Below are positions 27,515 to 61,998 of a stretch of DNA of 64,000 nt, one piece after another. The stretch lies in contig NC_087245.1 in assembly GCF_037042905.1 (NCBI RefSeq), positions 26,414,001 through 26,478,000 of the forward strand. Reading direction: 5' to 3'. How positions within the stretch are numbered: the stretch's first letter is position 1; the number at the start of each line of letters is the position of its first letter. A program made the translations under genes and the position numbers. The notes under the pieces are model-generated. The model was not told where the DNA came from and made no database searches. It saw nothing but the letters and a program-made list of their open reading frames with translations. Source of the stretch: Lytechinus pictus. Lineage: Eukaryota.

Positions 27515-29110
27515 TAGCCTAATGGACCATCAGAAACCATTAGAGCTATTGGAGTCTAATGGTTTATGAAATATGGGACCCACAGAACCATTAGAAAATA
27601 TCTATTGGACCAACAACCACCTTCAGAAAAATGCTGTTGGACGAAAAGAAAACATCTAATGGACCCATAGCATAAATCTAATGGACCAATAGGAAATTTC
27701 TATTGGACCTGCAAAAAAAATTGATTAGACCCACAGGAAACTTCTAATTGACCCATAGAAATCTTCTATTGGACCAACAGAAAACTTCTATTGGACCATC
27801 AAAAATATTCTATTAGACCCACAGGAAACTTTTATGGGACCCACAGAAATCTGCTATTGGACCAATAGGAAACCTGTATTGGACCATCAAAAAAATTATA
27901 TTAGACCCACAGGAAACTTCTATTTGACCAACAGAAAATTCTATTGGACCATTAAAAATATTCTATCAGACCCACAGGAAACTTCTATTGGACCAACACA
28001 ATAATTCTATAGGACCAACAGAAAACCTCTATTGGACCATCAGAAATATTCTATTAGACCCACAGGAAACTTCTATTGGACCGACAAAATAATTCTATTG
28101 GACCAACAGAAAACCTCTATTGGACCATCAAAAATATTCTATTAGACCCACAGGAAACTTCAATTGGACCAACAGAATAATTCTGTGGGACCAACAGAAA
28201 ATTCTATTGGACCATTAAAAATATTCTATTAGACCCACAGGAAACTTCTATTGGACCAACAGAATAACTCTATAGGACCAACAGAAAACCTCTACTGGAC
28301 CATCAAAAATATTCTGAGACCCACAGGAAACTTCTATTGGACCGACAGAATAATTACATAGGACCAACAGAAAACCTCTATTGGACCATCAGAAATATTC
28401 TATTGGACCCACAGGAAACTTCTATTAGACCCACAGGAAACTTCTATTGGACCAACAGAATAATTCTGTGGGACCAACAGAAAATTCTATTGGACCATTA
28501 AAAATATTCTATTAGACCCACAGGAAACTTCTATTGGACCAACAGAATAACTCTATAGGACCAACAGAAAACCTCTACTGGACCATCAAAAATATTCTAT
28601 GAGACCCACAGGAAACTTCTATTGGACCGACAGAATAATTACATAGGACCAACAGAAATATTCTATTAGACCCACAGGAAACTTCTATTGGACCGACAAA
28701 AAATTTCTATTGGACCAACAGAAAACCTCTATTGGACCATCAGAAATATTCTATTAGACCCACAGGAAACTTCTATTGGACCAACAGAATAATTCTGTGG
28801 GACCAACAGAAAATTCTATTGGACCATTAAAAATATTCTATTAGACCCACAGGAAACTTCTATTGGACCAACAGAATAATTCTGTAGGACCAACAGAAAA
28901 CCTCTATTGGACCATCAGAAATATTCTATTAGACCCACAGGAAACTTCTATTGGACCGACAGAATAATCATATAGGACCAACAGAAAACCTATATTGGAC
29001 CATCAGAAATATTCTATTAGACCCACAGGAAACTTCTATTGGACCAACAGAAAACCTCTATTGGACCATCAAAAATAATCTATTAGACCCACAGGAAATT
29101 TCTGTTGGAA
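27515..29110. repeat. Left subterminal array: ~22-bp units (CTATTGGACCAACAGAAAA...) in an ~88-bp higher-order repeat
   Basis: About 70 units. The variant CTATTAGACCCACAGGAAACTT recurs every four units (e.g. 28051 and 28139). Confidence 0.95.
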
Positions 29111-32100
29111 TAACAAAATAATAGAATACAGATTCTACAATCAACTCGTATCATAACAAGGTGCTTGAGACCAAGCTGATTATCTTCTTATTCTCATTAT
29201 AAACTTTAGACACATGTTTAAAATTGGTTCCAGAAGAATTTGCTTGTTATATTGAAATCTCGTTATACATCCCTGCCTATTATATCAGGAGTAGATTTGA
29301 TTCAGTCAGAACCAACAACTTGGCAGTGTTACTACAGAATAAAGGTTTGAAATATCAAATGTAATCAACTTGTTGTGTTTTATTCATTATGAACAATAAT
29401 ACTGTAGAATTACATCAAGGTGAGCTCTGTTAAAACATATAAGAGCATTTTATGTTGGTTTGAATTTATTCAGACATATTTCGTTGACACTATTTTTCTA
29501 TGTACATGAACATGGTCTTATTGCCTTTATTCCTTTTTTTTTCCTACACTGCTTAATGTTCTGCAAATGTTTGTGGTGTGAGCACATGATTTTTGCTGTA
29601 GATCAAATACATGTACATAGAAAAATAGACTGTCAACAAATACCGACATAATGATGAGAAGTTATTAATCTAAGGCATTTGCCGCAATAAACCTGATCAG
29701 TCTTCTCCAAATTCTGTGCAACTGAACTAAACAAAACTAGTAGATGTCTAATACATCAACAAGCAAATAGATTATCACATCCCCCAATGAACATGACAAT
29801 AAGGTTCAATGAAAATCAAACAGAATACATCTGTATTCATACATGTACATATCACTGGCAGTACATCACAAAAATATGTTATCTCTTGTATTATATACAT
29901 CTATTCTAATAATGTTACATGTACATTATAAACCTGTGAAACTCAACTACTGGTACTGGTAAACATGCAAATAGACCATCAATTCCACAACCAAAATCAT
30001 ATCCACTAAATATAACAAGGTTTTTCCATAAAATCAAGGTGAATACATCTGCACTCCTAACTTCAACATTACACATAGATGGCAAGCTCATGTATTGTAC
30101 TATCATTAATATCACAAAAATGTTTCGTTTGTAAAATATCTGTTCTATAACTTATACATGTATCTTCCATCTGTACAACTCAACTAAACAAAACTAGTAG
30201 ATGTAGGCCTATAATTATAACCAACGTGTAAATAGACTAGCAAATCCTAAGCTGATGTAATATCCAACAAATAAAACAAGTGTTTGATGGAAATCAAGGT
30301 GAATACATCTGCACCAAATAACTACGTTGTTGGATAAATACATACATGAAATGGCAAGGTCATATATTTTACTGGCAAACATTTGTTTTCTCTTGTAATA
30401 TGTATATCTGTTCTAATACGTTTCCATATAAAGCTATAAATCTAAGCAACTCAAGTAAACAAAACTATACAAAATCATCAATACAGGTATATAAAAAGAA
30501 TACATAATCATCTACTTGTACCCATTTTAAACTCTAATGCATATCCATACATGGAAAAAAAATGTGAAAAGAAAATGCTATAAAAAAATATGGTGACCAT
30601 GCATTAATTAATGCAGGAGATTCAAGGATCGAAATGAAAAGAATGCACTTGTTCTTTACTAATCCCCTACTGATTAACATTGCATATGTGGATGGCAAGT
30701 ATTTTTAAGCTACTAAACAGATAATTGTCCCTTTTACTTGTGGTAACAAGTGGTCTTAATTGTACATTATAAATCTGCACTGTAACCAAAGTAAACACCA
30801 ATATTCTAAAACGCCAATGCAGACTAGACCGCATTAACGGCTTTCTCAGCCCAAATTAGGTTTCGATAAAATTATATGACTGAATTACCCGTGAATATTA
30901 TATGTCATAGCATATAAAGTGAATGAAATTGAAGTGAACTTTGGCAAGTCATACAATATTTAAGTTGTTTAATTGGCAAACATTCACAAGATTTTTTCTG
31001 TTTGGAACATAAATGATACACTTTGATAGAGATGTTTTGCTACTGATTTAAGAGAGGAAGTTCATCATGGAAATTAGTGTTTCAAAAGGCAGAAAAACAG
31101 AAGGTGAATATGAATGACAACGGAAAGAAAATCCACCCCAAAAAAATGTAGTTATGAGAGTTAAACCATGGAGCTAAAAGGGAGATGATATCTAAATTAC
31201 GCTGATATATATGCATCTGTGAGACAAAGCAATTCTTTCAAGAAAAAAACCCAAATTATGGCATTTACATGCATAGGATATGGGAGAGCAGCTCATAAAT
31301 GATGTATCAAAATCCACATGTTGAATATTCATAACCTTGTTTTTCAGTAGATTTTCAAGCCTCATTCATATTTTTCTTAAACCAATCAAACTTCCCCTTT
31401 AAATAACTGTGGTGTAAACTATTGAGGTAAAACAGGCTAAAACAGCATTCCGTATATCTGATTCACATTTTATACAATCACGAAAGATGAGGTAGCCGTA
31501 TGCTTGTTTTTGTTGTAGTTAAGTAAAATAAGTACCGTAATGTAAAATACTTTGAATGGCAGACTTCGCGAGTTTTTAATAGATTGCACTGATTGTAAAT
31601 GTTATTTGGCAGCAACTGAAATATAAAACTAAAGTATACATACATATATAGTTTCAAAATAAATAACAGGTTTTAACACATGTATGTCTTCACATCATAC
31701 AAGTACTGAAAGGGCAAATACAGCTGCATACACGTACACCAATATCAATAACACATGTAGTCATGTGTTATAAATTGCATTTTTTTTTTTTTTTTTTAGC
31801 TTTTAAAGTTTAAACCATGTTTTATTATCTATTTTTAAATTACAGATATCACATTTTTTTTCATTAGAGGTTGGCTACCGGTATAAAATTATAATACACC
31901 AAATAGATTGAGGTGACATCCCATTCAATTTTGACACGTTCTATATCCAAATGAACAATATGACAGCCAGGGTTCTGAAAAAAAATTGATCTACACATGT
32001 AATCATGGTAAATGAATTCAATGAGAGTGATATCATATAAAATATTAATGTAATGAAATTTAGTATAGCTTTAACACAAGAGGCAAGGACCCCCTGTACA

Positions 32101-33210
32101 TTTGTATCCATATATTCTAGATACCTCTATTTGTGCAGCAAGCTTTCATGGCAGAGTAAAACTAAGGCACTTTTTTATATGAATTTAAAAATGTTTAGAG
32201 CATCATGTAGAGTGCAGCTCCAAAAACCTCCATGCTGCATGCAACAATAATTTCTCAAAGACTTGTGTAATGTATTGCAACATACATACAGCCTATACAG
32301 GTACCCTATACTATGCTCAAAACTTTATAAATTTGATATCACAAGGTGCTTAATAGTAATCTGCCTACATGTAGGTTCCTTTGAAATTGCATAGACCTGT
32401 GACATAATCTCAAAAATTGGAGACTAATACAATTTATATGAAAAATGCATACATGGAATATTAATGCCTTTCCAAATTTTTATACATGTACATAATGATA
32501 AGCTCCAGGGAGTAGTTTTTCTTACAGAATTTGATAAGTATTTGTGGCCATACGAGAAAAGCTCTCAACTAAGTTCCCTACAGTCCCTATGTAAAAATTT
32601 GCTACCCCAAAGACGTTATGTGTAGCAGTCATCTAAAAAATGTGGAGCAAAATGTGATGCAATACCAGGAAAACTTCCCTGAGCTATGTAATATATTTTT
32701 GTGTAAGATTCAATGTTAATTATATTAAAATTTAATGAAATATTATAACTATCAAACCGTATAACAAGCTGGGTGACGGTTACACTGATTGTTAATCACT
32801 GATTCTGTTTTATTTTCAAAATGAAATATAGAGCTATTTGCTGGGACCCTCTGTCATTTAATATTGATTATTATTGATATTTACTTATTCTATTACTATT
32901 TTTTTATTATTATCATGCACAATTATATTGATTTATAGCACTAATTATAAAGTTGTATATTTTATCTTGATCTTTCAATATTAATCTTTGAAATATTATA
33001 TTTTTAGACTTACCAAAACTAAAGCCCAGCTTTCACTATAAAATATCACTGAAATATTTATTGAGAAAATGATATGATTTATAGGTGGGTTCAAGATAGA
33101 AATAAGTTGGACTATCCAATTCAATAAGTTCTAATATTTAAAAAAAATATCCTCCCTCAGTGAAAGTGGTCCCCTCTCAATGTTAGATCCATCTGCCAAA
33201 ACATACAGTC

Positions 33211-33326
33211 TTAATACTTTCGAATGTCAGATATCTTCTCTCTGATGTAGCCATTGAACTTCCCAAGCTCTTTCTTGTATTGTTCGGGACTTAGCAGCTG
33301 CTTCTCTAAATGGTAGGCGAAAAAGT
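33211..33326 (-). CDS. BEND5-like protein exon 6 (end of BEN domain, stop)
   Basis: TTAG acceptor. DFFAYHLEKQLLSPEQYKKELGKFNGYIREKISDIRKY* resembles the last BEN helix (BEND5 VNKYICEKIMDINK as recalled). Confidence 0.82.
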
Positions 33327-33409
33327 CTAATACAGATATTGCAGTAAAGAAAAGACAAAAGAAAAGGGGGTTAGCAAAAACAAAGTTGTTATAGGAAAGA
33401 ATCTGCTGC

Positions 33410-34786
33410 ACAAAATTTTTTGACCATGCCACTCACAGAGTTTATACTTTATAAGTCTCGCGCATCTTTCTAGACCAAATTTACGACGCCTGGGTACGCG
33501 GTTCCAAAATCACGCAACATTTTGTAAGTGCATGTCAGAACAAAAATTGTTCCAAAACATGGTTTTGTGTACAAAGTCAATGCAAATTGAGTTTTCTCAT
33601 CTTATTCATAAAGATATGATTATTTTTACTTTAAGCAGCTGAAATAAATTGATTTTAGCATAATTATGCTTCAAAAAGGTTGTGCAATAAATCTGGTGAA
33701 AAGACAAAGAAAAACAAAAGGTTGAAAAACATAGAAATACATAAAACAATAAAATACATAAGAAATGATTTCCAAACTGAAGTTTTTTCTGTGGCTGGGG
33801 GGGGGGGTTGATTCAACCCCCCCTGAGATCTCGGCCGCCGATCGCGCGAGCGCCGCAAAAATTTGCTCGCTGGTAGTGTGCGATGTAATCTACAAGGCTG
33901 TATGGTAAAATTTTCCCAAATAATGAGATTTTATTTTATATGAATTAATTATGCTAATTTATGCATAAATCATACTTTTTGCTCTAATTCACTAAATAAA
34001 GCTCCTAGAATGCTAATTTTTGGTAAATATATTCTTTGTAGCATTCCTAACAATGGCAATTGAAAAAAACTTCGGTTTGGAAATCAATTTCTTATGTATT
34101 CTATTGTTTTATGAATTTCTTATGTATTTCTTTGTTTTTCAACCTTTTGTTTTTCTTTGTTTTTTTCACCAGATTTATTGCACAACCTTTTTGAAGCATA
34201 ATTATGCTAAAATCAATTGCTTTCAGCTGTTTAAAGTAAAAATAATCATGTCTTCATGAATAAGAGGAGAAAACTCAATTTGCATTGACTTTGTACACAA
34301 AATCACGTTTTGGAACAATTTTGGGTTTGACATGCACTTACAAAATGTCGCGTAATTTCGGAACCACGTACCCGGGCGTCGTAAATTTGGTCACAAAAGA
34401 TGCGCGAGACTTAAAAGTATCAACTCTGCGAGTGGCGCGGTCAAAAAATTTCGCGCGGCGGAATGATCGCAGAAAATGTGGAGGGGGGGGGGGGTTGATT
34501 CAACCCATCCGGCCATTTTAGGGTTAAGAATGCTACAATTAATATTTTACCAAAAATTAGCATTCTAGGAGCTTTATTTAGTGAATTAGAGCAAAAAGTA
34601 TGATTTATGCATAAAATAGCATAATTAATTCATATAAAATAAAATCTCATTATTTTGAAAAATTTTACCACACAGCCTTGTAGATTACATCGCACACGAG
34701 ATCTCAGGGGGAGGGGTGTGTCAACCCCCCCCCCCCACTCCCCCGGCCACAGAACAGCCAAAAAAGTCCGGCCTTGTTAGGGTTAA
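33410..34786. mobile_element. Two nested, oppositely oriented copies of a piggyBac-like MITE
   Basis: AGGG|TTAA ends at ~34527 and ~34786. 33415-33790 is the inverse of 34065-34450, and 33880-34050 is the inverse of 34524-34695. Confidence 0.65.
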
Positions 34787-34908
34787 TGAATTTGAAAAAT
34801 GCACATAAATTAGCATATTGAATGAGTTTCAAAATTCTGTTAAAGTTTTGAATTCCCTTGTGCAAAGAAAACAGAACTTTAAGTGCGAAGTGCGAAGAAG
34901 AACTTTAA

Positions 34909-35492
34909 AGGAGAATGAAACTCTTGGAGCAAGTTGGCTTTTGTGAAAGCAGAAAAATCAAAGAATAAGATCAACAAAAGTTTGAGTAAAATAGGACTAG
35001 CAATAGAAGAGTTATGAGCATTTGAATGTCGAGATCACTAATGCTATGGAGATCCTCCCATTGGCAATGCGACCAAGATCTATGATGTCACAGATGAACA
35101 ACTCTCCCCTTTTGGACACTGAAAATATACCCCAAAACATCTCTTTTTGCTCATTCTAATCATATGGCAAACGATTCATCAATGATATAATGTTGTGAAA
35201 CCTCTGTACTTGTCCTCTCATAATGAGAACACCTCACCTTGTGATAGACACTATAAAAGTGAGAATATAAGTGAAATAAGTACTAAAGTAATGAGGGAGT
35301 TGTACGTGTGTGACATCACAGATCTTGGTCGCATTGCCAATGGGAGGATCTACATGGCATTAGTGATCTCAATATTCAAATGCTCATAACTTTCTTTTTA
35401 TTCATTCAATCTTCCTCAAAATTTCAACAATATGTTTCTTTGATTTTTCTCTTTGATATGGATTCAGCTGGTTTCAAGGGTTTCATTCTCCT
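34909..35492. mobile_element. TTAA-flanked MITE (Kolobok-like), family B
   Basis: TTAA|AGGAGAATGAAAC...GTTTCATTCTCCT|TTAA with ~185-bp imperfect inverted arms. Confidence 0.8.
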
Positions 35493-35602: not shown

Positions 35603-35816
35603 CTTTAACTGCCTGCAGCTTTCCTGAATCAAGTGCAGGCCGTACTGCATGGTCCTTGTATCTGTTACACGTCTGTCCAGTTACAGAACTTTCTCTTAAA
35701 AGAGCAGTTCCAAAGACTGCAACTGCAAGGTTTTTAACCATTAGGCTATTTTTAACCTGCCCAGTTATAGCCTCCATTTTGTCTGCAGGTATGATTATTC
35801 CTGCTCCTAAGGACAC
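35603..35816 (-). CDS. BEND5-like protein exon 5 (BEN domain core)
   Basis: VSLGAGIIIPADKMEAITGQVKNSLMVKNLAVAVFGTALLRESSVTGQTCNRYKDHAVRPALDSGKLQAVK shows the BEN signature (L..vFG...L...S.TG.....rp.Ld..kl). CTAG acceptor, GTAACA donor. Confidence 0.9.
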
Positions 35817-37170
35817 CTAGAAATGAGAATGAACATACAGCAGGAGTTACCTTGATTGCAAACAAATAATAAATTTAATACCTATCATTGTTACTTGATT
35901 TTAAATTCATTATAAGCCTATCCCACTTTTAATTATTTTTTACATGAAAGATTGCTCCAACCCTCATATCTGAATATGCCATGTGTAGTTAGGTCATTAT
36001 TATCAAAGACATGATAACTTTTGTAATAAAAGCTTGCATGTTACACTTTACACATGAGCTTGACGCCAACATAGGCAGTCAGTAGACAGGTCCCCAAAAA
36101 GTAGCTTCTTTCATCCACGTGATATTCATGACTAACAAGATTTTTAGTATAACTTGCCCATTGCTGCTCTGAATATTTATCAAATTTCATGTTTCTGGTA
36201 TCTTTGTAAAGAGGAAGAATTATTCTTTCAGATGATTTGTTTGAATTTATTCAAAAAAATGTAATGTAAGTGAAATTTCAATCTAAAACATACCGGTAGT
36301 CAAAAATAATTATTTTCATCAAGTTGTTGTTTTAACACTTCATTTCTGTTCAAGCCCAAATGATATTTAAACGATGACAAAGCTGATGATCTAAGCTTTA
36401 ATATGATATATGATTCAAAAGAAGATTTGGTTTAATTGGGTCAAAATCACACTTTTCATAGGCCAAACATGTACAGAAGCTTGAAAACAAGAATACTTCA
36501 CTCTTATGGCCAAAGATACCATGTACCCGCTCAAATTCCAAAGGTTTCAATGCTGGGGCCTATCCAAGGTCACACTCTCAATGTGGTAAATGTAATCTCC
36601 TTAAATTACATGCACCAATTGTTTTGAAACCTTATTCAGCCAATCAGAACTCTGGATTTCCTGCTACTCTCAAATGTCAGAAATCTTGTCTTGTATCTTG
36701 ATGGAAAATTGTGATCTTGACCCAATTAAAAGGTCCCACATATCGAGAGTGATATTGTGAGAAAGTACAGAATCTCGGCTTTGTGATGATATAAATATCA
36801 TTGAGGCTCAAAATAAAAAGTTTTGCACCATTTGCAAAAGAAAACAGGGAGAGAAAATTCAATTTTGAGACATCTTTTCAGACCTAAAATTCACTTATCA
36901 AAATAGTTTAGACAAAATAAATTACCGATATAAAAGAGTAACATCTACACTTTCTAATGGTACAATACTATCTAATTTTTCTTGGTGATAAAGTGGTTAA
37001 ATTCTTAGAAAGAAAATCTCGCAATTCATGAGATTTTGTAGGGAGGACTCAGCCACGAGAGGATCTGGCCTATTTGCTCATCACAGGAAACCGCAGCCTG
37101 ACTGTAGGTAAAAGCCACATTTCACCAAGACATTAAGTCGCTCATTACTACAGTGTACATTAAAACTTAC

Positions 37171-37355
37171 TTGACCATCATCAGGCACATATTTATCTTC
37201 GAGAACTGTTGGTGTTGGTAGTTGTTCGGCTGGTGGGGGGGTCTGGATTGGTGTGGGTCTAGGTTGCGGAGCCTTGAAAAGGGGCGTAGTGTGTTGTACA
37301 GAAGTGCTGGAGGGGGGCTGTGTGCGTGCCTTCACAGTTGGTATCAAGGGTCCCA
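37171..37355 (-). CDS. BEND5-like protein exon 4 (Pro/Thr linker)
   Basis: Ends PTPTVLEDKYVPDDGQ (BEND5 PAPVMDKYILDNGK as recalled) followed by a GTAAGT donor. Phase 1-0. Confidence 0.8.
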
Positions 37356-38130: not shown

Positions 38131-38413
38131 CTTTGTTTAGAATTTCTTCTTGAAGCCTCCGATTCAGGGTCCTCAGTTCCTCCAATTCTTGGGCGATAGT
38201 TCTCTTTTCTTTTTCTAGTTCTGCAACTTTTTTTTTCAAGGACATGCAGTTACCACAGTTGGAAGCACTGGCAGACACACCAGTGTTTGGGGTTGTTTCT
38301 TTCTTGGGTGCATCGGTACAAGGGAAAAATGTCTTGCGTTTCACCATCTTTTCTTGCAGGATACTGTCCAGGGCTGTTTTTTTGGCTGTAGAAATGTGGG
38401 CGTTGGTGGCTTT
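38131..38413 (-). CDS. BEND5-like protein exon 3 (CxxC and coiled coil)
   Basis: KATNAHISTAKKTALDSILQEKM...CGNCMSLKKKVAELEKEKRTIAQELEELRTLNRRLQEEILNK (BEND5 MKELRDLNRRLQDVLL as recalled). AG/GT boundaries, phase 0-1. Confidence 0.82.
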
Positions 38414-39212: not shown

Positions 39213-39364
39213 CTTGGCAACTTTTTCTTCAGCGAACTTTTGTTTCAGGGATAGTGGCACAGACTCCTCCTCATCACTTGCCTCCTCCACACTTGACTCA
39301 ACAAGCTTTCGGACCCTGATTCTTGGCCCATTCTGTATTCGTTCCTCCAGCTTTTCCTTTGTCT
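39213..39364 (-). CDS. BEND5-like protein exon 2 (absent from ORF track)
   Basis: CTCAG acceptor, GTAAGG donor. Encodes ETKEKLEERIQNGPRIRVRKLVESSVEEASDEEESVPLSLKQKFAEEKVAK. Phase 1-0. Confidence 0.8.
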
Positions 39365-41187: not shown

Positions 41188-41392
41188 CTTCCAGCAGTAG
41201 AATCTGAGCCCTGTAGTAGTCAAATTCTTTGCCCTCCTCGTTGTCTAAATCCATGGGTTCGACCCCATCTTTGTTCTTGCTACTAACTCCTACATGTAGG
41301 GTCCTCTTCAGTTTCTTTGTCGATGTTTTCTGTGAGGTGTCGCCGCGCTCGACGACCTTCTTCGCCGGCTGCCTCCAAAGCACATAATACAC
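41188..41392 (-). pseudogene. BEND5-like exon 1, 3' part (separated from its start by a foldback insertion)
   Basis: VYYVLWRQPAKK...EFDYYRAQILLLE followed by a GTAGGC donor. It joins in frame to 47767-47877 when 41402-47766 and one TSD copy are removed. Confidence 0.82.
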
Positions 41393-43599
41393 CTTATCTT
41401 CGAATCAGGGACAACTCGGACCACGGGACATCTCGGACCGTGGGCCGAGTTGTCCCACCCGTTTCGTGATTTTTTTCCCACAAACTTGCGTCTATTTTTC
41501 CGTCAATTCGAAATTTCTTGTAATGATTTTCTAGAGATCTGGTCTGTTGGTAATGTTCTTCACTTTCTATTACTTTTTTTTCGCTGAAGTTAAAAAAAAA
41601 AGTGTAATTTTAGGCGTTTTTCGACAGCTTGCGATTCCCATAGGCGCGCGTGTATTAACTGTGTTGGTGCTCGGCTCGGCCCCGCTCAACAACTGACTTG
41701 ATTTTGTGATCATTTCTCCTCAAGTTACCACTTTTATCGCAGAAGATGGACTTTCTTGTATTCCATTCACTCTAATTATTCATCACAAGGATAAAATTCG
41801 GTGTATATGCACGATTCTGTTAAAGTTTTTCACCTTTTCTCTCTGGTCCGAGTGGTCGTAAGAAGCGAACAACCGATGAACGGTCCGCTGCTCTTCATCG
41901 CAATTCTACGTAGCTCGGCCGCCGAAACTGGCGGGGTGGGATTCAGCCCGAATCCCCAATGGAAGTGGGCGTGCACAGTCGAAGAGCTGAGCTTGACTGA
42001 GTGAGAGAGAGTGAGTGAACTGGAGCTAGGCTCTGCTTTTTTTTGGTAAATATATATATGTATTTTTTTATTTTGTCTATATTGATTTTCCCTGGTGTAG
42101 AGCTTTAATATTTTAATAATTTAATATGCTTCAATTTCTTTGACTGAGTGTGACTGTGGTGTGGATGTTTGAGTCGCACAAAAAATACTTTTACGTGGGT
42201 GGGGGCTCGGGGCGATTTCACTCCTGCCCCCAAAATGTGAAAAAATATCTGCGGTGTAGATGTGTGGGCCTGCTAGGCTGAGGGTATAGCCATCAATAAA
42301 AAATGTTTTATTTGGGGGCTTAATTTTGAATTAAACTATTTTTTACAGGATTTAAAAAATAAAATGATGTAATTCATTGTGCCCCTTTCCATTCCTTGTT
42401 TTTCCCTGATTTACTTTCTTTAATTTTATTTCTTGGTCTTAAGGGTGGATGTCAGGCTGCCGGGGTGGAATTCAGCCGGAATTGCCAATGGAAGTGGACA
42501 TACTTGCACAGTAATTAGCCTGGAGACTCGAGCCTTGCCCTGCAGTTGTGAATATTTTTTCAATCAAGTTTTAAATACTCAGTTGGCTGGTTCAATAAGG
42601 GCCACTCAGTCTTATTCCCATTTGAAATATAATCAGGGGCGGATCCAAAATTTCCCTACATGGCCGGGGGGGGGAATTTTGTATAGGAATTTTTTGACAA
42701 AAGGTCTTCACTACCAAACTTGAATCACAGTAATTTTTTCCCCAGGAAAAATTTGACAAGCAAAGAAAAAAGGGTTTTCAGTTGCCTTTTGAGTACCTCT
42801 AAACGGGGGGGGGGGGGGGGGGGGGGGGGCGGATGTGCCCCCCCCCCTGATTCGCTACTGGAACTAATGTCCATTTCATTCAGTTTTTCTTTTTTACAGG
42901 AGGAAAGAATAGAGTAAGAAGTTTGGTGTTTTGTATTTTTACCAATTATTGTTTATTCAATATGAAATGTATTTAATTTAGTATAATTTCCAAAAAGCAT
43001 CACTTAATTAACTTATTTAAATTTAAAATGTAAACATGAATAAAAATTGTGAACTTTGAATGAATATATTCTGTAAATTGTAATATTTTTAAATCATATT
43101 TTATCTCCATTCTTATCATTGTCTCCTTTTCTCTTTATGTTCATCACTCTCATTTCAATTAAATATATATTCTGTTACTGGTATAAAAAAAAAGACAACA
43201 ATACTAAACACTGATACATTGATCAATAGAAAAAAACAAAGAAAAAGAGGGGAAATACAAAGAAATGACAGGTACATGGAGGGGGGGGGGGTAACAACAA
43301 ATCATGCTTGTCTGGGTTTTAAAAACAGGAGAAGGGTGGTCAATACAATATTGCAATTAGCAGATTATGAAGAGGGTTTTGTTTTTATCAAATAATTTTT
43401 GCAGTTCCTTATGAAACTTTGGAGTGATGTTGTTTTGTTTTTCTTTAATAGAATATCACCCATTCTAGAAAACTGAACTCTGTATCTAACACTAAGTTGC
43501 CCTAGTGTTGTTTTCCAATCTACATTTTCTAGTTCCTGGTATCATAATTATGGATGTAATCATTTAAGGTGTACCAGTTAGAAAAGTACTATTCATACA

Positions 43600-43992
43600 A
43601 TGATACAATACTATGTTCATTGACCCTAAATGATATTTGACCTTGATCATGTGACATTTCAATGATACTTGATTACCCCTATGTCCAAGTTTTATGAACC
43701 AGATCCATACACTTTCAAAGTTATGATGGTTATTCAACAAATACCCCCACATGGCCAAAGTTCATTGACCTTGAATGACCTTTGACCTTGGTCATGCGAC
43801 CTGAAACTCGCTGCAGGATATTCAGTGATACTTGATTAATCTTATGTCCAAGTTTTATGAACTATGTCCAAATACTTTCTAAGTTATGCTGTCATTTCAG
43901 AAACTTAACCTTCGGTTAAGATTTGATGTTGACGCTGCCGTCGGAAAAGCGGCGCCTATAGTCTCACTCTGCTATCCAGGTGAGACAAAAAT
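43600..43992. mobile_element. Helentron-associated (HINE/DINE-like) repeat fragment
   Basis: Internal TGACCTTTGACC repeats and a terminal hairpin GTCTCAC...GTGAGAC next to an A-run. Confidence 0.5.
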
Positions 43993-44483
43993 CATGATAC
44001 AGTGATGGAAAAAAAAGTAATAGAATAAATTTAATCAAAAAGAAAACCACATGCTATGTAAAAGAAATGAAATTCAAAATCATAAATTAGTCATTTTTAT
44101 TGAATGAAGAATTTAATTTATTGATAATTGGAAAAAAGATGAACCCTATTTTCTTTCAATGGAACCCAAATAGTTGTAGGGCCTAGTATGATTTTTCATC
44201 ACATAACATGATTCAGAACAAAAATCAAGCCATATGTGACGTTTTGGGTTTAATATCGTGTGGGACGGAATCTACATGACGGCATTCGTTGGACGGATTT
44301 TTCTTCTTAAATCTATCTATCTCTGCTCATCCTCATATCTTTCATTACCTTCATCCCTCTCATCAGAGGGATGGAGGTAATTAGGCGGATGGGAGGAGAT
44401 TGACATGAGAGGAGGGATGAAGATGATGGGAGGATCGAGGGGTGGAGATAATGAGATGGTGGGAGGAATGGAGATGATGGGAG

Positions 44484-45947
44484 CAACCGCGTAGCCAGGA
44501 TTTCATTTTGGAGGGGGCGGTAATCGCACGCGAAGCGTGCCAACACTTACAGAGCGCGCGAAGCGCGCTCCCTAGGGGGTGGGTGCAGGGAGGGGGAGTT
44601 TCCCCCTCCCGCGCGAAGCGCGAAGCTTTTGGTGTTTCATAAATTAAAATGAAAAGGAGCCGTCTCTCTTGTCTCTAGTACCTATATCACCTCCAGTTCA
44701 GTTGACAATATTGTGATTTTGAACCTTTTTTTCATGAACCTTGTTTTCAAAAGTGATTGTGAGCGAACGCATAAAAGGGGAATACAATGGAGGAAATTAA
44801 AATAATAACCCCGCGCGAAGCGCGGAAGCTAAAGCGTTTTTTTCAATTTTTTTCTGCCATGAAAAAGGTCCCGATAAAAGGGTATTTTCAAAGATATATT
44901 GAATACTTCCCTTGGAAAGATCATATTTGATTACAAACGATTTAGCGACAGTGCATAACTCGCAAAATAGAGGAGAAGAAGTGTATATGCAGGGAGGAAG
45001 ATATTCCTCCCCGCGCAGAGCAATGAAACTCTGAAGTTTCAAAGGGCGGACGTTTCATCAAATTCAGATATCTCTAATACCCCATCGGGTCTAATTCGAT
45101 TGATTTTCTAAGATTATTGAACTTCATTACAAGGAAAATAGTGCGCAAAAAGTTGAAACTTCTGTGATTCATTGAAATTATATAAAAAAGGATGCCTAAT
45201 TTATTTGACTTATACTGAAGCGCTTCATTTTGAATTATAAAGAACCCTAAGTGTCATTCAAAATTTCAAACTGAGTGCGCAAAACAGGACAAGAGATGAA
45301 TGTGCAGGGAAACGACATGAAGTTTAATAGAATTTGATAATAAATATTGTACTTTTTTATCTAATACGACACGAATTTTATACCTTCCTTTTTTTAAATT
45401 AGGAACCTGTTTGCCCCAAAATTATGGTTGATTAGTAATGAGCTGAAAAGCAGGAGAAGTTGACTTTATGGAGGTGACGGCAGAAATTGATATAAAGATT
45501 TTACCCGCCCATGGCCGACCCGTCCAGAAGTGGCGCAATCAATTAAAAAAAAAAGATAACTTCATATACTTCGGCCTAACCTTACTCTAATTATATGCCC
45601 TAATGCATAAATTTGAACTTTAACTGGCAAGAAACGGGCAAGAAACACATATAGCTGAGGTGGAAAAACAGGGTTCGAGAAAGGATGGGGGAAACAATGG
45701 AGAACTTCAATATTATCATTTAACCGCGCGCCGCGCGGAAGCAAAATTCATATATAAATTTAGAGCAAGAGAGAAGGAGTTTCTCTTTTGAGAAAAAAAT
45801 AAAGAATAAAAAGAAAAAAAAACACAAAGCTACCTTTCTTCCCTTTCCTCCCTTCCCTTTTCCTTTTCTCCCCTCTTTTTTCCCTTCTTTTTTTTTCTTT
45901 TTGGGGACGTTTTGGGGGGCGACCGCCCCCCCCTGGCTACGCGCCTG
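44484..45947. mobile_element. Non-autonomous hAT element nested in the foldback element
   Basis: TIR CAACCGCGTAGCCAGG / CCTGGCTACGCGCCTG. Perfect 8-bp TSD GATGGGAG (44476-44483 and 45948-45955). Internal CGCGCGAAGCGCG motifs. Confidence 0.85.
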
Positions 45948-47766
45948 GATGGGAGAGAATGAGGCGAATGGGAAGAGCATCCCTTTCAAGAAAATAAATC
46001 AGGGAGGAACAAGGAATGGAAATGAATTGAATTATTTTTAATCCTTTAAAATAAAAATAATAATTAAAAATTAGGCCCAGAAACAGAAAATTGATTGAAA
46101 AAACCCCCCATATTATTCACAACTACAGGGCCAGGCTAGTCTCCCAGCTCAGGCTGTGCACATATGTCCACTTCCACCATTGGTGTTTCCGGCTGAATTC
46201 CACCCCCAAAACAGTCGTGTGGCTTACTCAAGTATAAGCCACACCACTTGAGTAAGCCACACCACAAAAAGGCACAGAACTAAACTTAAGTTCTACACCA
46301 GGGAAAATGAATTCCAAAAAAAAGAGGGAGCAATTGAAGCGGGCAAGCTTGTAATGGGGGCGCCTTGTTTCCCTTACTCAAGTAACAGAAAATTGATTGA
46401 AAATAAAAACATAATATTCATAACAGCAGGACCAGGCTATATAGTCGAAGGCTGTGCACGTATGTCAACTTCCATTGGGGTTTCCGGCTGAATTCCACCC
46501 CGGCAGCCTGACGTCCACCCTTAAGACCAAAAAATGAAAATAAAGAAAGTATATCAGGAAAAAACAAGGAATGGAAAGGGGCACAATGAATTAAATCATT
46601 CTATTTTAAATCCTGTAAAACTTAAAAATAATTAATATGAATTGGGGGTGGGGGGTTGAGTATCAAAATTTTTTTAGGGGGTTTGAACGCCTGTAACCAC
46701 CCCCTGCGTACGCCACTAAATTGAAGCATATTATTGCAACTTAAAACTCAGCTCTCTACACCAGGGAAACTCAATATGAAAAATAAAAAGGAAATTTATA
46801 TACAAAATAAATAGGCCTAAAAATAATTAGTTTAATTAAAAATTAAGCCCCCAAATGAAATATTTTTTATTGATGGCTATACCCTCAGCCTGGCATGCCC
46901 ACACATCTACACCGCAAATATTTTTTCACATTTTGGGGGCAGGAGTGAAATTGCCCCGAGCCCCCACCCACGTAAAAGTATTTTTTTGTGCGACTCAAAC
47001 ATCCACACCACAGTCGCACTCAGTCAAAGAAATTGAAGCATATTAAAATATTACAATCTTAAAGCTCTACACCAGGGAAAATCAATATAGACAAAATAAA
47101 CAAATACAAATATATATTAACAAAAAAAAAGCAGAGCCTATAGGTACGTCCCGACCCCTTTCTTCAAGCTGTAGTTCACTCTCTCTCACTCAGTCAAGCT
47201 CAGCTCTTTGACTGTGCACGCCCACTTCCATTGGGGATTCGGGCTGAATCCTACCGGTACCCCGCCAGTTTCGGCGGCAGAGCTACGTAGAATTGCGATG
47301 AAGAGCAGCGGACCGTTCACCAGAGAGAAAAGGTGAAAAACTTTAACAGAATCGTGCATATACACCGAATTTTATCCTTGTGATGAATAAATAGAGTGAA
47401 TGGAATACAAGAAAGTCCATCTTCTGCGATAAAAGTGGTAACTTGAGGAGAAATGATCACAAAATCAAGTCAGTTGTTGAGCGGGGCCGAGCCGAGCACC
47501 AACACAGTTAATACACGCGCGCCTATGGGAATCGCAAGCTGTCGAAAAACGCCTAAAATTACACCTTTTTTTTTTTACATCAGCGAAAAAAAGTAATAGA
47601 AAGTGAAGAACATTACCAACAACAGACCAGATCTCTAGAAAATCATTACAAGAAATTTCGAATTGACGGAAAAATAGACGCAAGTTTGTGGAAAAAAAAT
47701 CACGAAACGGGTGGGACAACTCGGCCCACGGTCCGAGATGTCCCGTGGTCCGAGTTGTCCCGACCC

Positions 47767-48550: not shown

Positions 48551-49016
48551 ATGGATCGGCAGCGTCGAAAAAGAAAGAATTACCTCGAACCACAGAGCGA
48601 TGCACAACTACCCGCCGCGACGCGATGGAGGATGAACAGGAGACGAGCGCGATTAGCCCCCGCTGCCCTGGCAGCGGCTGACGAAGTGAACGCTCCCCCC
48701 GATGATGATAGCACTGATGATATGGAGTTTGAAGGAAATCATCCACATGCCTTTGTACCTCGTCCATTGCAATATGATGTTAGATTTGATAGTGATCAAA
48801 ATGCAGCCGATGATGAGTCAGAAATGGCAACCGGAGAAGATGATGAGGTCGAGGCCCGGCCCAACAATTGTGATATTTCAACTGCAGGTGGTGTCATGTT
48901 AACTAGTTCAGCTGCTGCAATAGATCGAAGGGCAAGGCAAGCCAGACTAACTACATGTAGACTGACACCTAACTCGGTCTCAGACTCAGAGTTGATTGGA
49001 AGTGAAACTTTTGAAG
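48551..49016 (+). CDS. CACTA/CMC transposase exon 1 (basic N-terminus then acidic region)
   Basis: MDRQRRKRKNYLEPQSDAQLPAATRWR...; GTTAGT donor in phase 1, compatible with the downstream exons. An earlier donor near 48887 is also possible. Confidence 0.65.
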
Positions 49017-49044
49017 GTTAGTCATGGACAGTAGATAATGACTA

Positions 49045-54945: not shown

Positions 54946-54963
54946 CCTGACTTATGTCTTTAA

Positions 54964-55542
54964 AGGTCAAGTCCACCCCAGAAAAAAGTTGATTTGAATA
55001 AATAGAGAAAAATCAAACAAGAATAATGCTGAACACTTCATCAAATTCGGATGGAAAATAAGAAAGTTATGACATTTTAAAGAATCGCTTATTTTTCACA
55101 AAACAGTTCTATGCTCAACTCAGTGATATGCAAATGAGAGAGTCGATGATGACACTCATTATTTATTTTGTTTTTTATTGTTTGAATTATACATTATTTC
55201 ATTTTTTACGGATTTGACAATTATGACCATCTTGTTTGAACCACAAACTTTTGAAACAATCGAATTCCACATGATCAGGGAGGAATAAAACCTTTTCTGC
55301 ATGACAATTAGGAGAAAATTCAAATAAAATACAAAAGAAATAGTGAGTGAGTGATGTCATCAGTCTCCTCATTTGCATACCGACCAGGATGTGCATATAA
55401 CTGTTTTGCGAAAAATAAGCGAAAATTTAAAATGCCATAACTTTCTTATTTTACATTAGATTTTATGAAATTTTCGATGTTATGCTCGTTGGATTTTTCT
55501 CTTTTTATTCAAATCAACTTTCAGTTGAAGTGGGCTCTTCCT
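54964..55542. mobile_element. TTAA-flanked MITE, family A, just after the transposase stop codon
   Basis: TTAA|AGGTCAAGTCCACCCC...GGGCTCTTCCT|TTAA. Homologous to 4575-5176. Confidence 0.8.
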
Positions 55543-55549
55543 TTAAGGC

Positions 55550-56005
55550 AGTTTGGAACTGAATATTGGTGATGGAAAAAAGCAGAAGTTACAGGTTTTA
55601 CCAAATTTTCCCTAAAAATATGGTTACCATGGCAATCGATGTCTCTACCCACTCCAAAATCATTAGGCGGCTTTGCTTTACCATATTGGTCCTTCATGCC
55701 ACATTTGAAGATGATCGGAGAAGAAATGTAGCTGGAAGAGCGCTCACAAGGATATCTCTGCTATTTCCACAAAATATCTTGCTACCATGGCAACGATGTC
55801 TCCGCCCACACCAAAATCGATAGGCTTCTTTACTAACCATAATGGACTTTCATGCCACATTTGAAGATGATCGGAGAAGAAATGCATCTGGTAGAGCGCT
55901 CACACGAAAATCTCTGCGGCGGATGCGGCAACGGCGGCGGCGCGTCGAGGCCAAATCCATAGTAATCCATTGTATCCCCGAACAGAGTTCAGAAGATACA
56001 ATTAA
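55550..56005. mobile_element. Helentron-associated (HINE-like) repeat fragment
   Basis: Two ~158-bp internal repeats (CCATGGCAA...CATGCCACATTTGAAGATGATCGGAGAAGAAATG), a (GGC)n tract and a terminal hairpin TGTATC...GATACA. Confidence 0.5.
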
Positions 56006-59000
56006 TCTTCTTTCTCACTTTATGAGATGAAATTAGACTATAGACAGCCTTAAGTTGAACCCGAACCTATGCCTGAACCATAATAGCTTGATTTTTCAAT
56101 GGAAATGTAATATTAAGTTTATTTACATCATAGTAGAAACTTGCTTCTTTGGTGAATATTTTCTGTCTCCTGTTATAATAAACATTGATGACAAAAACAT
56201 TCAGTCCCAAAATGTTACATTATACATGGGATTTTGGTGTAAAACCGCATACAACCAGCATGGATATAATGAGACTTCTCTCCCGTATTTTCAGTGACCC
56301 CACAACAACAAAATTTAATTTGTCATGAGCATGAATTAGGTGATCTGCCCTGATTTTAATGATCATTGTCATTATCACCATGTCCATGTGGATCAATATG
56401 GATAAAAAATGGAGGTGACCTACATCACCTACCGAAATCTCAGCTACAACATATTCACAGCTCCGCATAAAAATGGACAAGAAATAGTGGAGATATTGCT
56501 CGCGAAATAGAGGAGTGTAGAATCCAATTTTGGGAAAAAGTAATCTCCCAGAGATTACACGCATTATGAGCAAAAATGCATGCCTCTATAAATTGTTACT
56601 TTCCACTGTATCCAGCTTTGTGCTATATTTGATATTTATTATAATTTGGTAGATCAGTGTCCATTTCTCTTTACTCTGCCTGTAGTGGATAAATGGGACC
56701 ATTCCACTTTGATATTATCATGCATTTGAGGACTCCTTTGGCTCTCTTTCCCCTATTGTGTTTTGTAACTCTGGGGTCTGTTAGGCATTATGGCCTTGTG
56801 ATTGGTATTGTTTGCACTTATTCCACAGATAAGATAATTTACTTGTGAACTATGTAATGTTATAATTGTTGCAGGGACCATTCCTATTATTCTCAAACTG
56901 CAAAAAAAAAAGTTTAATTGCAACAGCTTATCTCCATGGATAGGAATGCCACTCTGATTAAAAAATTATTGTATTCTTGGCAGAATAACATCATACATGT
57001 ACATAAAATCACATAAGTTTATAAATCATGCAATATTATTTTCACGAAATCTCTGAACGATTGGTAATGTGAGTTATACATGTACACTGTGGCTTATCTA
57101 AGCTTTGTTTGTAATTTGTAATATCTTAATGAGTAAAATTATTTTGTGGATTTTCAATGTTTTTACCAGCACATATTTATGTTATATTTTTTTATATGGT
57201 TCACCTTCTACCATCATCTTCTTTTGAGGTTTTGATTTAAATATCTCGCAAAATATTTGTAATTACTAGTTTGACATTTATTAGTAATTTACCAGCAATC
57301 TTCCTTAATTCAGCTCTGTAATCAATTTATTCATCTCTCTTATGATAATCTCTTCAATGTGAGGGTGTATTTTGTTTAACAAATCTATGTAGAAAACAAG
57401 AAGATTATGAATATTTAATTTTGTGTGTGCCGTCACATCCTCTCGTTCATGTTTGCCATCCTTTATACCTTTGGATAATTATTTTATAGATCACTGGTCC
57501 TTAATTAATGTGCATTAGCAGGGTATGAGATATGTAAAAATACGACAGTCAATGGGATAATTACTTTCTACTGACTTTTATTATCTGGAAATTGTACTAT
57601 ACATGTAAACTCAATATCTGTATGTAATGTTTCTTTATTACCATACTCTGTTAATTTGTGTATTAACAGAGACATGCCCTTTTTTATGCTTATTAACAAA
57701 TGTCGCAGTAGAACTGCCATGGTTATCCTTTTTTTGTCACAGAAATGAAAGAAGCAATTTTTTGACAGTTAAAAAGAAATACATTAACATGGGAAATATC
57801 TATCTGGCGGAGGCCAGACTCTTGCCTCATGGAATATGGAACCAGAACATACATGTAAATTGTATGATTTATTTTATATATTTGTTTGTTTAAAAACAGG
57901 GAAGCCGATTCAACGATGTGTTGGTCTCCCATGGTGCCTTATGACAATGTACATAGCATAACATTGCAATTATAACATTCATTTACATAGCAACTTCACA
58001 AGAGAGGCATAAATATTTGTAAGTACATGTGAAAGAATCATAAAGCTAAAGTGGCAAGGAAAGAACATACAATTAGCAGAAAAGTACAATGATTTAAAAA
58101 GCAGATGACGTGAAATTATTAAGGCATGTATTGTTCGAATTTACATTTAGCTAAAATCTTTAAATTTAGAAAGTAAGCTGGAGTTGGAGTTTCTGTTGGT
58201 CATAAAGGTTGGATATTTCAATTTACTTGTGCTTGAATTTCTTGAATCTATTTGTCCCACTTTCTTCTTTTGGGACCCTGCCTATATATTGGATGTCCCC
58301 CTTACTATTCCAGGGGATTTAAAAAAAGGTTTGTCAACCTCACAATGCCTAATTGTCCTCAGGACCCAATTCTGTTTACCTGGCCAACCAAAAGCAAAGA
58401 CATAAAACGAGAAGAAATTGATATCATTTGGACTGAGAAAATAGCTTGTTTTTTTTATTTTTTATATCGAGTTTCCATTGTACTCAACTTAGACCTTGGC
58501 ATGTGAAAGAAAGCTGCATTCCTCTCTGAAAATGTGGAATTGTGGGTTTTCATTGTCAATTCTAAGAATTGAAATATTGCATGATTCAAACAGTAAAAAA
58601 AAAAAAAAAAAAATAGGAAGTGAGGGACATCAACCACTCTCTCATTTGCATATCACTGAGTTGTGCATATGTTTTGTGAAAAAAAAAAAATTAAAGGAAA
58701 ACTCTAAAATGTCATAACTTTCTTATTTTACATCCAATTTGATGGAATATTTCAGAATTATGCTTGTTTGATTTTCTCTATTGATTCAAATCAACCTTTT
58801 TCTGGGGTGGACTTGACCTTTAAACTTCCGTAAACCCAGGGGGTGATTAACTATAACAAAGATCAATATCGTCCATAAAAAGTGAATTCAGAGATTGATA
58901 ATTTAAATATCCATTCAAGCATTTTTTTTGTAGTGGGATAGACAGGTAGTATTCCTTTCAATTATCTGATAGATTAATGTATGCAGAGATGTGAGAGTTC

Positions 59001-59439
59001 AGCCTTTAGGGGGTTTGATTTTCAGCAGCTTTCCTCTGAACAAACATTCAAGCTCTTTCAATTTCATTTTTTTATCAGGATATTTTTGCCAGTCACACTC
59101 CTGCGTATGACCTTGTACCTCGTAACAAAATTTTTTATGTGAAATTTACCAAATATATATACATATATGTATTTTATTACAACTTGTGTAATGTCAAACT
59201 ATTGAATATATATTTATTTTGAGACTTGCGTCATTTACACACACTTTGAGAGACGGAAAAAGGTGAAATGTTGTATTTGTAATTCGAATAGTATGAAATG
59301 AATAAAATTTATTCAAACTACACATTACAATTATTGATATTGGTAATATTTTCTGCTCCACCAACAATCTATTCTGATTTGTTTTATTTGAACGAGATAT
59401 AAATCTTAAGAGACGTCTAACTTGCATTTTTCCCTTCAG

Positions 59440-60075
59440 AGTATCTGATGGTTTTACAAGACCAATAGAGTCTCTGATGGTTTTACAACACCAATAGAGT
59501 CTCTGATGGTTTTACAAGACCAATAGAGTAACTGATGGTTTTACAAGACCAATAGAGTCTCTGATGGTTTTACAAGACCAATAGAGTCTCTGATGGTTTT
59601 ACAAGACCAATAGAGTCTCTGATGGTTTTACAAGACCAATAGAGTCTCTGATGGTTTTATAAGACCAATAGAGTCTCTGATGGTTTTACAAGACCAATAG
59701 AGTCTAGCTCTGATGGTTTTACAAGACCAATAGAGTCTCTGATGGTTTTACAAGACCAATAGAGTCTCTGATGGTTTTATAAGACCAATAGAGTCTCTGA
59801 TGGTTTTACAAGACCAATAGAGTCTCTGATGGTTTTACAACACCAATAGAGTCTCTGATGGTTTTACAACACCAATAGAGTCTCTGATGATTTTACAAGA
59901 CCAATAGAGTCTCTGATGGTTTTATAAGACTAACAGTCTCTAATGGTTTTATAAGACCAACAGAGTCTCTAATGGTTTTATAAGACCAACAGAGTCTCTA
60001 ATGGTTTTATAAGACCACTAGAATCTTTAATGGTTGCATAAGACCAATAGAGTCTCTAATGGTTTTATAAGACCA
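59440..60075. repeat. Right subterminal array: 29-bp units AGAGTCTCTGATGGTTTTACAAGACCAAT
   Basis: About 22 head-to-tail, highly similar copies, degrading into scattered CCAATAG/CTAATGG/CCAACAG motifs up to the right TIR. Confidence 0.95.
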
Positions 60076-61998
60076 TCATAATCTGATGGATCGGGAGAAA
60101 CATACTCTGATGGTTTCTGGTGGTTTTAATGGACCAACAGACTGACATTTTCTAATGGTTTTATCGGACCAATAGAGTCTGATGGTGGTTTTAATGGACC
60201 ATTAGCCCTTGTCCACCAGAAACCAATAGAGTCTGGCTGTATGAGTTGGAGTCTATGGGTCCTGTTGGTTAAACCTGTTGGTCCAGCAAGAGGCTGACCC
60301 ATTCATTCTATTGGTCTCTATTGGAGTACAATGGGAAATCTAATGGTCCATTAGAAACCATTAGAAACCAACAGAAATTTTCTGTTGGTCTCCTGTTGGA
60401 CCCTAATGGAATTTCGACCTGGGGGGCTTATTGTAAAAAGGAGGGTCCTCGGAACGGGGCTTCGGAACTACAACTGTTTGTGAAAACGGGGGTCCTTGGA
60501 ACGGATCGCCAGCGTGTGAGTGCGTATGCATCGATCCCTATGGAACGGGCATGCGTGCATGATGCACTGAGCTAGCGAGGCGGCCTCCGCCGGGTGCGCT
60601 CGCGCAGAGGCGATGGTCGGACAGCGCTCTGCGGCCGCTTTTCACCAAAATTGCAGCTCATTGTAGCAGATCAATGCGACCGGAACGGCGTAACGAAAAA
60701 TGTGCGAAGCTTTGGAGCGGATTTCTTTCTTCTTTTTTCTCGATAAGAAGAAAATGCTATATGCTTTGGAGCGGCTTTCTTTGTTCTTTTTCTCAATAAG
60801 ACAAAAATGCTATGCCTTGGAACGGAAATTTGAGTGTAAAAATGGGGGTCCCCTCCGCGGCACATACCCACTATGCATTATATACTGAGTGCCCCCCCCC
60901 CCCCCGGTAACATATCCACATCTACTCCCGATACGTTTGATAAAACTAAAAAACTGAACACAACTCTATTCCAACAATTAATGAAATCCCTTTTTAGGGT
61001 GTGCAAATCTGGGACATCTGCATATAATCTGTGTTTCGGGGTCCTAACAGCTTGTTCTAAAATGTCTGATTTAGGATTTTTTTTAGTGACATCCCCGCCC
61101 CCCCCCCCCCCCGGGCCCGGCCCCCGATAAGTAGTTCAAAATGACAAAGCGCACTTTAATGCTAATTTCAGGCAATTCAAGATGGCAGCGCCCATAGGTG
61201 AACTTATCACGTTGAGATTTGTTAAACAAATAACAATTGAATTCTGTCCATGGGAGAAAAACGTACGATCTGTTAGGTATGATGAGCGATTAAAACCTAT
61301 ATTTTACTTGATTAGTGAATAGATCTGATCTAACGTCAATGATATTACTTGTATTTAATAAAGGTGTTGTCGCTGTCGCGGTATCGCGATTTATGCAGGG
61401 ACTAGCGCATGTCCCACCCGTAGTGATCGATGCAGGGTATTCTACCCACTCATCCTACCACTCCTGCATTAATTTGTGCGAAAGAACTTGGAGATTTGTG
61501 ACATTTTTGTTATTACATTCAAATTGCATCATGAGTCAATCACAATCATAAAATATGCTGCTGCACATGAACTTTCTGAGTTCATGGCTCATGCTGTAGG
61601 CCTAGATCCAAATGTTAATAATAATGCCATGGTAATGGTTTCATTTTCATGACAATTTTTTCTTGATCTTATTCTTAATTTCTTATTCTTCATGTTCTTG
61701 GAACATGTGGAAAGTGGAATTGAACAAATTTATTGCTCACGACATGACCAATAAATTTGTACAATTCCACTTTCCAAGAATGAAGAATAAGATGAAGAAA
61801 AGGCTATGTCATGAAATTGAAAATGAAATCGTGTCCACTCACACATATTGCGAGGGTAGAATGCTAACCTTGCACTACGAAAGTGATTACACAATGCAAT
61901 GGATTTTTAGTAGTAGGTTATTAACATCGCTTCGTTGTTGACCAAAACTTGTTCCGCTACTCACCGGGGCTCTTTCCAGTGAGTGGCTATCCGTTTTT

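Follow-up and report, generated by a model that had tools for sequence, protein, structure and literature searches.

An EnSpm/CACTA transposon of Lytechinus pictus with a BEND5-like gene, a candidate TnpA-like reader of its subterminal arrays

The element and its end arrays

The window analysed here is the whole stretch of 64,000 nucleotides from Lytechinus pictus (contig NC_087245.1, positions 26,414,001 to 26,478,000). Positions 27487-60423 of the window are an EnSpm/CACTA transposon of the animal CCC type, which is characterized by CCC ends and a 2-bp target-site duplication. This element, termed W, contains a transposase gene, an antiparallel gene for a BEND5-like protein with a BEN domain, and a subterminal array of the 7-mer CCAWYAG at each end (Table 1); the BEN protein is a candidate for the factor that binds these arrays. 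C8, the C10 family, C11, C13 and C19 denote sister families in the same genome.

A second copy of W (G000:C21:13925302-13951278) lies in different flanks and, the left array excepted, matches W at about 99% identity, which shows recent mobility of the family. The TA duplication of this copy fixes the boundary of the element. Judged by its sequence, the 849-residue frame is assigned to the Transposase_21-type DDE transposases: it matches PF02992 with an E-value of 2.5e-6 (27.3 bits, slightly below the cut-off of 28.6), relatives at 64% and 55% identity exceed that cut-off, and residues D178, D263 and E515 are invariant across 35 sequences. Sea urchins are the source of the closest named proteins.

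Table 1. Features of element W and two open frames outside it, in window coordinates
Feature	Position	Strand	Remark
Target-site duplication GG, left copy	27485..27486		C21 copy has TA/TA
Left terminal inverted repeat, 31 bp, CCC start, CCAATAG site at its end	27487..27517	+	
Dispersed CCAWYAG sites, terminal repeat to array	27518..27637		8 exact sites within 27517-27640
Left subterminal array, 66 x 22-bp units, 88-bp higher-order repeat, inverted 7-mers	27638..29109		spacers 1 and 7
BEN last coding exon: end of helix 4 and recognition helix 5 (EKISDIRK)	33211..33326	-	spliced contig, 0 differences
BEN exon, bulk of BEN domain	35603..35814	-	PF10523, 27.1 bits (cut-off 23.2)
BEN exon, proline-rich linker	37169..37355	-	
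BEN exon, predicted coiled coil	38131..38413	-	
BEN exon 2	39213..39364	-	
BEN exon 1, part beyond insertion	41188..41402	-	
Insertion, 6.36 kb, long inverted arms, 11-bp flanking direct repeat	41403..47762		interrupts BEN exon 1; not in C21 copy
BEN exon 1, first part with start codon	47763..47877	-	P0001 residues 1-37, 100%
Lone CCAATAG between divergent BEN and transposase start codons	48060..48066	-	further CCAAT boxes adjacent
Transposase gene, first coding exon (end = end of open frame)	48551..49021	+	matches start of P0152
EnSpm/CACTA transposase main open frame, 849 residues	52396..54945	+	no interruption
Right subterminal array, about 21-22 x 29-bp units, inverted 7-mers	59438..60075		spacers 10 and 5
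Dispersed CCAWYAG sites, irregular spacing, 1-bp-spaced pairs included	60076..60392		17 exact sites within 60080-60393
Right terminal inverted repeat	60393..60423	-	29 of 31 bases as in left repeat (2 mismatches)
Target-site duplication GG, right copy	60424..60425		
Outside W: open frame, 333 residues	17861..18862	+	no Pfam match
Outside W: uninterrupted Tc1/mariner transposase frame, 367 residues	62598..63701	-	

Subterminal arrays by themselves are an expected feature of CACTA elements. Those of W contain 70 exact CCAWYAG sites in 27487-29120 and 58 in 59430-60423, with 15 in the remaining 61,100 bases of the window; 500 Markov simulations gave means of 1.06 (left) and 0.67 (right) and maxima of 7 and 4, respectively. 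Units of a tandem repeat do not count as independent, so a separate count was made for the terminal stretches outside the tandem parts, and these contain 8 sites in 124 bp on the left and 17 in 314 bp on the right (simulated maxima 2 and 3). The original prediction that the same half-sites recur at both ends is thus borne out, with the 7-mer as the common unit. The left unit it had quoted, CTATTGG-A-CCATCAG or -CCAACAG, is exact in 13 of the 66 22-bp units (4 and 9, respectively), the rest being variants (CCCACAG, CCATCAA, CCATTAA, CTATTAG); the right unit, whose reverse complement reads CTATTGG-TCTTGTAAAA-CCATCAG, is exact in 10 of 21 29-bp units, and the others are close variants. The proposed CCAAT core, on the other hand, does not hold as the common element: of the 128 exact sites, no more than 55 read CCAATAG, neither the Insensitive site CCAATTGG nor the Elba site CCAATAAG is present at either end, and sister and related elements use CCAGT, CTGYRGTAC, GCAAGCT, TCATGA or CTGCAG.

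Tandem structure indicates expansion by slippage, and the motif is present in the terminal repeat itself, as would be the case if the arrays were neutral minisatellites grown from that repeat, or if they served a host CCAAT factor, for example NF-Y. The two arrays, however, differ in unit length and have only the 7-mer in common, the motif is also dense outside their tandem parts, and elements with transposases of 36-41% identity still share its class; an origin of this neutral or host-directed kind is very improbable. The NF-Y consensus is RRCCAATSR; it has a count of 0, and NF-Y was rejected as a reader.

The spacers had been read as differing by about one helical turn and as possibly telling the left end from the right. 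The contrast in W is clean, with 44 pairs at a 1-bp spacer on the left and 23 at a 10-bp spacer on the right, and C13 and C19 likewise have the 1-bp pair as their most frequent one on the left. However, the difference is 9 bp, which is 1.5 bp below a turn of 10.5 bp, the spacers of pairs facing the opposite way are 7 and 5, and the right end of W also has three 1-bp pairs. Spacing is not conserved among the seven elements tabulated: the right ends of the sisters use 1, 2, 3, 6, 7 or 12, both ends of C11 are arranged alike, and short mobile copies of the C19 family are irregularly spaced in the two inspected. There is little reason to expect that the spacers act as a phase code for the two ends.

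The BEN gene and its product

The BEN gene occupies 47877 to 33211 of the minus strand, antiparallel to the transposase gene, and encodes a spliced BEND5-like protein that consists of an N-terminal domain, a coiled coil and a BEN domain. A contig of 1,436 bases from run X1, which was taken as RNA by guess, is spliced: six exon pieces, among them the last exon with helix 5, are continuous in it and match with 0 differences. The contig carries the alleles of the W copy and not the three differences of the C21 copy. One run of another organism label contains trace reads on the BEN exons, and a search across sequencing runs listed no RNA run as a holder. A comparison of the BEN exon of W with that of C13 shows a preserved frame, a nonsynonymous divergence (dN) of 0.40 and saturated synonymous divergence (dS).

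Pfam detects only BEN in the W helper, and no family of the TnpA type, i.e. the tandem helix-turn-helix of plants. A full BEN fold of five helices, including helix 5 and a long loop, is supported by the exons, by the spliced contig and by a model of P0011, a C13-family domain 51% identical to the W domain that served as its stand-in. The top structural match of this model (predicted local distance difference test, pLDDT, 86) is Insensitive in complex with DNA (4IX7, E-value 5.6e-4), followed by Bsg25A, and the BEN profile also matches Insensitive with an E-value of 1.4e-9. The numbering of base-reading residues follows PMC8887127 and PMC4281564 (published work is cited throughout for individual passages), and these residues were mapped through two alignment steps, by which D351 and K354 of Insensitive correspond to the D and K of KISDIRK in helix 5 of W. 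Together with the replacement of S304 and A306 by C and R in W, this correspondence would fit a W site that begins with CC and has an altered middle.

A search of solved structures with P0001, which is without the last exon, gave no BEN match, and a single-sequence fold of P0002 (pLDDT 55) was not used. The N-terminal domain matched unnamed clusters at 0.89 in an atlas search, which is a lead only.

Sister families and related elements in other samples

A survey of the genome gave 40 transposase matches, and the flanks of 14 loci were retrieved. Six families have CCC ends and a motif of their own at both ends: W (CCAWYAG), C13 (CCWATAG), C19 (CCAGTW), C8 (CTGTRRTAC), the C10 family (CYGCRGTAC) and C11 (CAAGCTYGC). 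The target-site duplications of the sister families are all 2 bp long (TT, GA, AA, AT, CA, TA). Within each of the six families, the best 7-mer common to both ends reaches 10-25 per kb, while across families the same measure is 9 per kb or less, except for the related pairs W-C13 (21, 10) and C8-C10 family (14).

A BEN exon is found in all six families, by Pfam in four, by similarity in C19 and weakly in C11. In five of the six it lies upstream of and antiparallel to the transposase gene. The sixth, the C10 family, is represented by BEN-bearing copies with both arrays, and the genome contains 8 matching BEN-exon matches. Two of its copies, both at a distance from the transposase locus (G000:C1:5513513-5529200 and C3:74929650-74945319), are 15.7 kb long and have the BEN gene, both arrays and target-site duplications, and no transposase; the last BEN exon of the C1 copy is altered. 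Four short (1.2-2.2 kb), non-autonomous copies of the C19 family (L107-L110) contain no gene, and the motif is retained at both ends in all four, which fits a need for it in transposition. Many further short C19-family end pairs were seen on C1 and C2.

Among the best 80 of 332 matches kept from a survey of metagenomes, 11 loci have a match to BEN or to the N-terminal domain, which lies upstream and antiparallel in 10 of the 11. Where at least 6.5 kb of upstream sequence is present, such a match is found at 6 of 10 loci. Two further elements have both ends: L173 contains TCATGAA 22 times at each end and 0 times inside, and L189 contains CTGCAGA 13 and 12 times at its ends and once inside.

The class of end motif follows the class of the helix-5 residue. 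Asp accompanies the CCA- motifs of W, C13 and C19, Asn the CTRYAGTA/CYGYRGTA motifs of C8, the C10 family and L154, and Thr the CTGCA motifs of C11 and L189, these classes having been drawn after the sequences were seen and representing about four independent groups. The covariation of array motif and BEN sequence suggested in the original prediction is therefore positive across families, and the transposase tree confounds it: among nine BEN domains, no family has discordant BEN and transposase trees. As the motif class follows BEN helix and transposase alike, sequence cannot name the reader of the motif. The comparisons do indicate that the coupling of BEN gene and transposase is old.

Several other loci were encountered in these searches. 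The element at C18 (L081, L082; G000:C18:4.86-4.88 Mb) has a downstream gene of similar layout on the same strand, with weak DUF4806/BEN leads only; against the BEN profile this gene was negative, scoring below shuffled sequences. DUF4806 has been described as a BEN subtype (PMC11075544). The more distant C20 and C31 contain neither BEN nor such arrays within 30 kb, the element ends being undefined there. Distant EnSpm-like transposases (L072-L080 and L084-L086; 22-28% identity) are accompanied by a different downstream gene, presumably CIDE-N or SAMD3-like, and the C8/C16 pair among them is CAC-ended. A search with the terminal 12-mer retrieved 14 single ends, of which 13 are not array ends and one led to a new array family, L116 (G000:C1, left of 12374977). 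This element is about 1.6 kb long and contains no gene. Its terminal repeat is related, and its arrays hold CCAATTGG, CCAACTGG and CCAGTTGG, which include the exact Insensitive palindrome; its parent element was not found.

BEN exons also occur in tandem, in five copies of the W-family exon at L106 (G000:C11:24494372-24496169) and in three copies of another at L047 (G000:C15:10829775-10830407), the latter beside a 93-95% identical transposase fragment. L043 (G000:C10:10581696) is a solitary left end that has an array. At L044 (G000:C10:13163498), a right end is truncated and another CCC end, with CCATGG repeats, comes after it; the flanks of L043 and L044 do not match each other. At L103 (G000:C5:52002962), a BEN gene with the helix-5 exon has neither transposase nor arrays in 20 kb and is possibly a host gene.

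The candidate reader and its relation to BEND5

The BEN protein of W probably acts on the ends of the element as TnpA does in plants. In such a mechanism, each CCAWYAG 7-mer would be approximately the footprint of one BEN domain, and the BEND5-like protein would form oligomers by way of its coiled coil, as described for BANP (PMC11472053), coat both ends and pair them, which would let the transposase act at the CCC terminal repeats. Density of sites would count and their exact spacing would not. The BEN gene, the fold, the apparently retained Asp and Lys of helix 5 and the confounded covariation speak for the part of the original prediction in which the arrays would be docking sites for this protein; the binding itself, oligomerization, end pairing and a need for the protein in transposition are inferred.

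The closest functional parallel may be the En/Spm system of maize (TnpD and TnpA) and the Spm elements of Arabidopsis, with which W shares a Transposase_21-type transposase, terminal inverted repeats, a second gene product and helper-only derivatives (PMC2613891, PMC13547354, 10.64898/2026.08.24.746577). In maize, transposition depends on TnpA, which binds the subterminal repeats (PMC2613891), and in Arabidopsis TnpA binds to clusters of motifs that are specific to each family (10.64898/2026.08.24.746577); a family-specific subterminal motif at both ends, in direct and inverted orientation, is likewise found in W and its sisters. In contrast to these systems, W has CCC ends and a 2-bp duplication instead of CACTA and 3 bp, its arrays are distant from the start codons of the genes, and its helper is a separate antiparallel BEN gene, whereas TnpA is a tandem helix-turn-helix protein. 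The helper of W may thus work like TnpA and would fill its role with a different fold, yet it is no TnpA homologue.

The animal TRC/CACTA elements (SmTRC1 of Schistosoma, and elements of Aedes and Tribolium) resemble W in their CCC ends, 2-bp duplication and Transposase_21 domain, and a TnpA-like role was proposed for a second product of theirs (PMC1636069). In the cited passages of PMC1636069, however, their second products are splice forms for which no homologues were recognised, and neither a BEN domain nor subterminal arrays are described. Drosophila Insensitive and Bsg25A/Elba (PDB 4IX7, 4X0G) are the best structural and profile matches and share with the W protein the K-x-x-D-x-x-K pattern of helix 5 and sites starting with CCA. 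They differ from it as host repressors and insulators, and Insensitive binds an overlapping palindrome (CCAATTGG) through a domain with different loop residues.

Several observations weigh against a BEN reader, in addition to the late drawing of the motif classes and the congruence of the BEN and transposase trees. In two raw RNA runs with the same organism label, sampled to about 6%, almost no reads fall on the BEN exons, exon 1 of the W copy is interrupted by the 6.36-kb insertion, and the minor-groove residues S304 and A306 of Insensitive correspond to C and R in W. The BEN call of C11 has an E-value of 0.16 and no Pfam match. The C18 element has a CCC end and an AACGTT array, with no BEN by Pfam or profile alignment; L164 and L165 have terminal repeats (a CCC end was called in L164) and no BEN match in about 6.7 kb upstream, and L129 and L177 have no BEN match either. 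Binding of BEND5 to the Insensitive site has been described as weak, and fusion of the transposase with the TnpA-type DNA-binding domain is reported as the typical state in animals (10.64898/2026.08.24.746577).

Some of these points would be expected if the transposase itself read the subterminal motifs and the co-inherited BEN gene served elsewhere, for example in chromatin or in anti-silencing at other sites. Motif class tracks the BEN and transposase trees equally well, animal Spm transposases often have the TnpA-type domain in cis, and C18 and L164/L165 have arrays without a clear BEN gene. Such an arrangement is nevertheless unlikely. BEN appears to retain base-reading residues (Asp and Lys of helix 5) and its gene has the same layout in distant samples, the sole BEN-less family with both ends defined, which is CAC-ended, has weak common motifs (best common 7-mer 5 per kb), and a Pfam scan of six transposases found no helix-turn-helix family, although this last is weak evidence.

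It is decidedly improbable that the BEN protein, bound to the arrays, mainly regulates the element by repression, insulation or anti-silencing rather than pairing its ends. The Drosophila proteins are repressors and insulators, Arabidopsis TnpA affects transcription and methylation through motif clusters (10.64898/2026.08.24.746577), one motif lies between the divergent start codons in W, and BEN-bearing copies without transposase have spread, as have TnpA-only families in Arabidopsis. On the other side, the short gene-less copies retain motifs at both ends, the arrays are at least 11 kb from the internal start codons, and the motif between these is found in one of four loci, with none in three sister loci. 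Self-repression, which had been predicted as one function of the arrays, is weak on account of this distance and the lack of a conserved intergenic motif.

The relation to vertebrate BEND5 was addressed with a tree of 59 full-domain database rows, a few of them cluster members, which derive from 118 homologues, and seven genome domains. The tree is unrooted, many of its inner forks are open and its bootstrap is not settled, and a transposon setting is established for a minority of the database rows. Named BEND5 proteins of alligator, gar and catshark fall in a clade (support 95/91) with W, C13 and C19, together with BEND5-like proteins of echinoderms, fish, ticks and a barnacle that are patchy and partly multicopy. 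The rows P0052, P0084 and P0047 were cited for the nesting of vertebrate BEND5 among element-borne BEN domains. Helix 5 of vertebrate BEND5 (EKIMDINK) has the same pattern as that of W; BEND5 differs as a host gene, and by the cited passage of PMC11472053 its preferred short motif is not established. A single clade of five element-borne domains was rejected by the approximately unbiased test (p-AU 0.001; 30 rows, C11 omitted as a long branch); this group was defined with a first tree already in view. Among solved structures, P0111 is matched best by human BEND6, and P0111 itself clusters with the domains of C8 and the C10 family. A crinoid transposase and a crinoid BEND5-like gene have near-consecutive accessions and lie on equal-sized contigs.

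Vertebrate BEND5 may thus have been domesticated from transposon BEN proteins, or the elements may have captured host BEN genes; as the tree is unrooted, the direction is left to both readings. A broader proposal, which we consider possible while leaning slightly against it, is that a wide animal clade of CCC-ended EnSpm elements uses BEN proteins as TnpA, with one helix per end motif and hence a natural BEN-DNA code, and that vertebrate BEND5, perhaps also BEND6, is a domesticated helper. The literature search, outside which an earlier mention is possible in Repbase or in supplements, yielded no publication that connects BEN proteins with EnSpm ends or BEND5 with a transposon origin.

If this proposal is true, the TnpA equivalent would be named for one large group of animal CACTA elements, and many patchy "BEND5-like" annotations would be explained as transposon cargo. 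The matched pairs of BEN domain and motif constitute a directly testable set for the BEN domain, about whose rules of recognition little is known, and a CCA-type site is predicted for BEND5. A vertebrate chromatin factor would then have its origin in a transposon.

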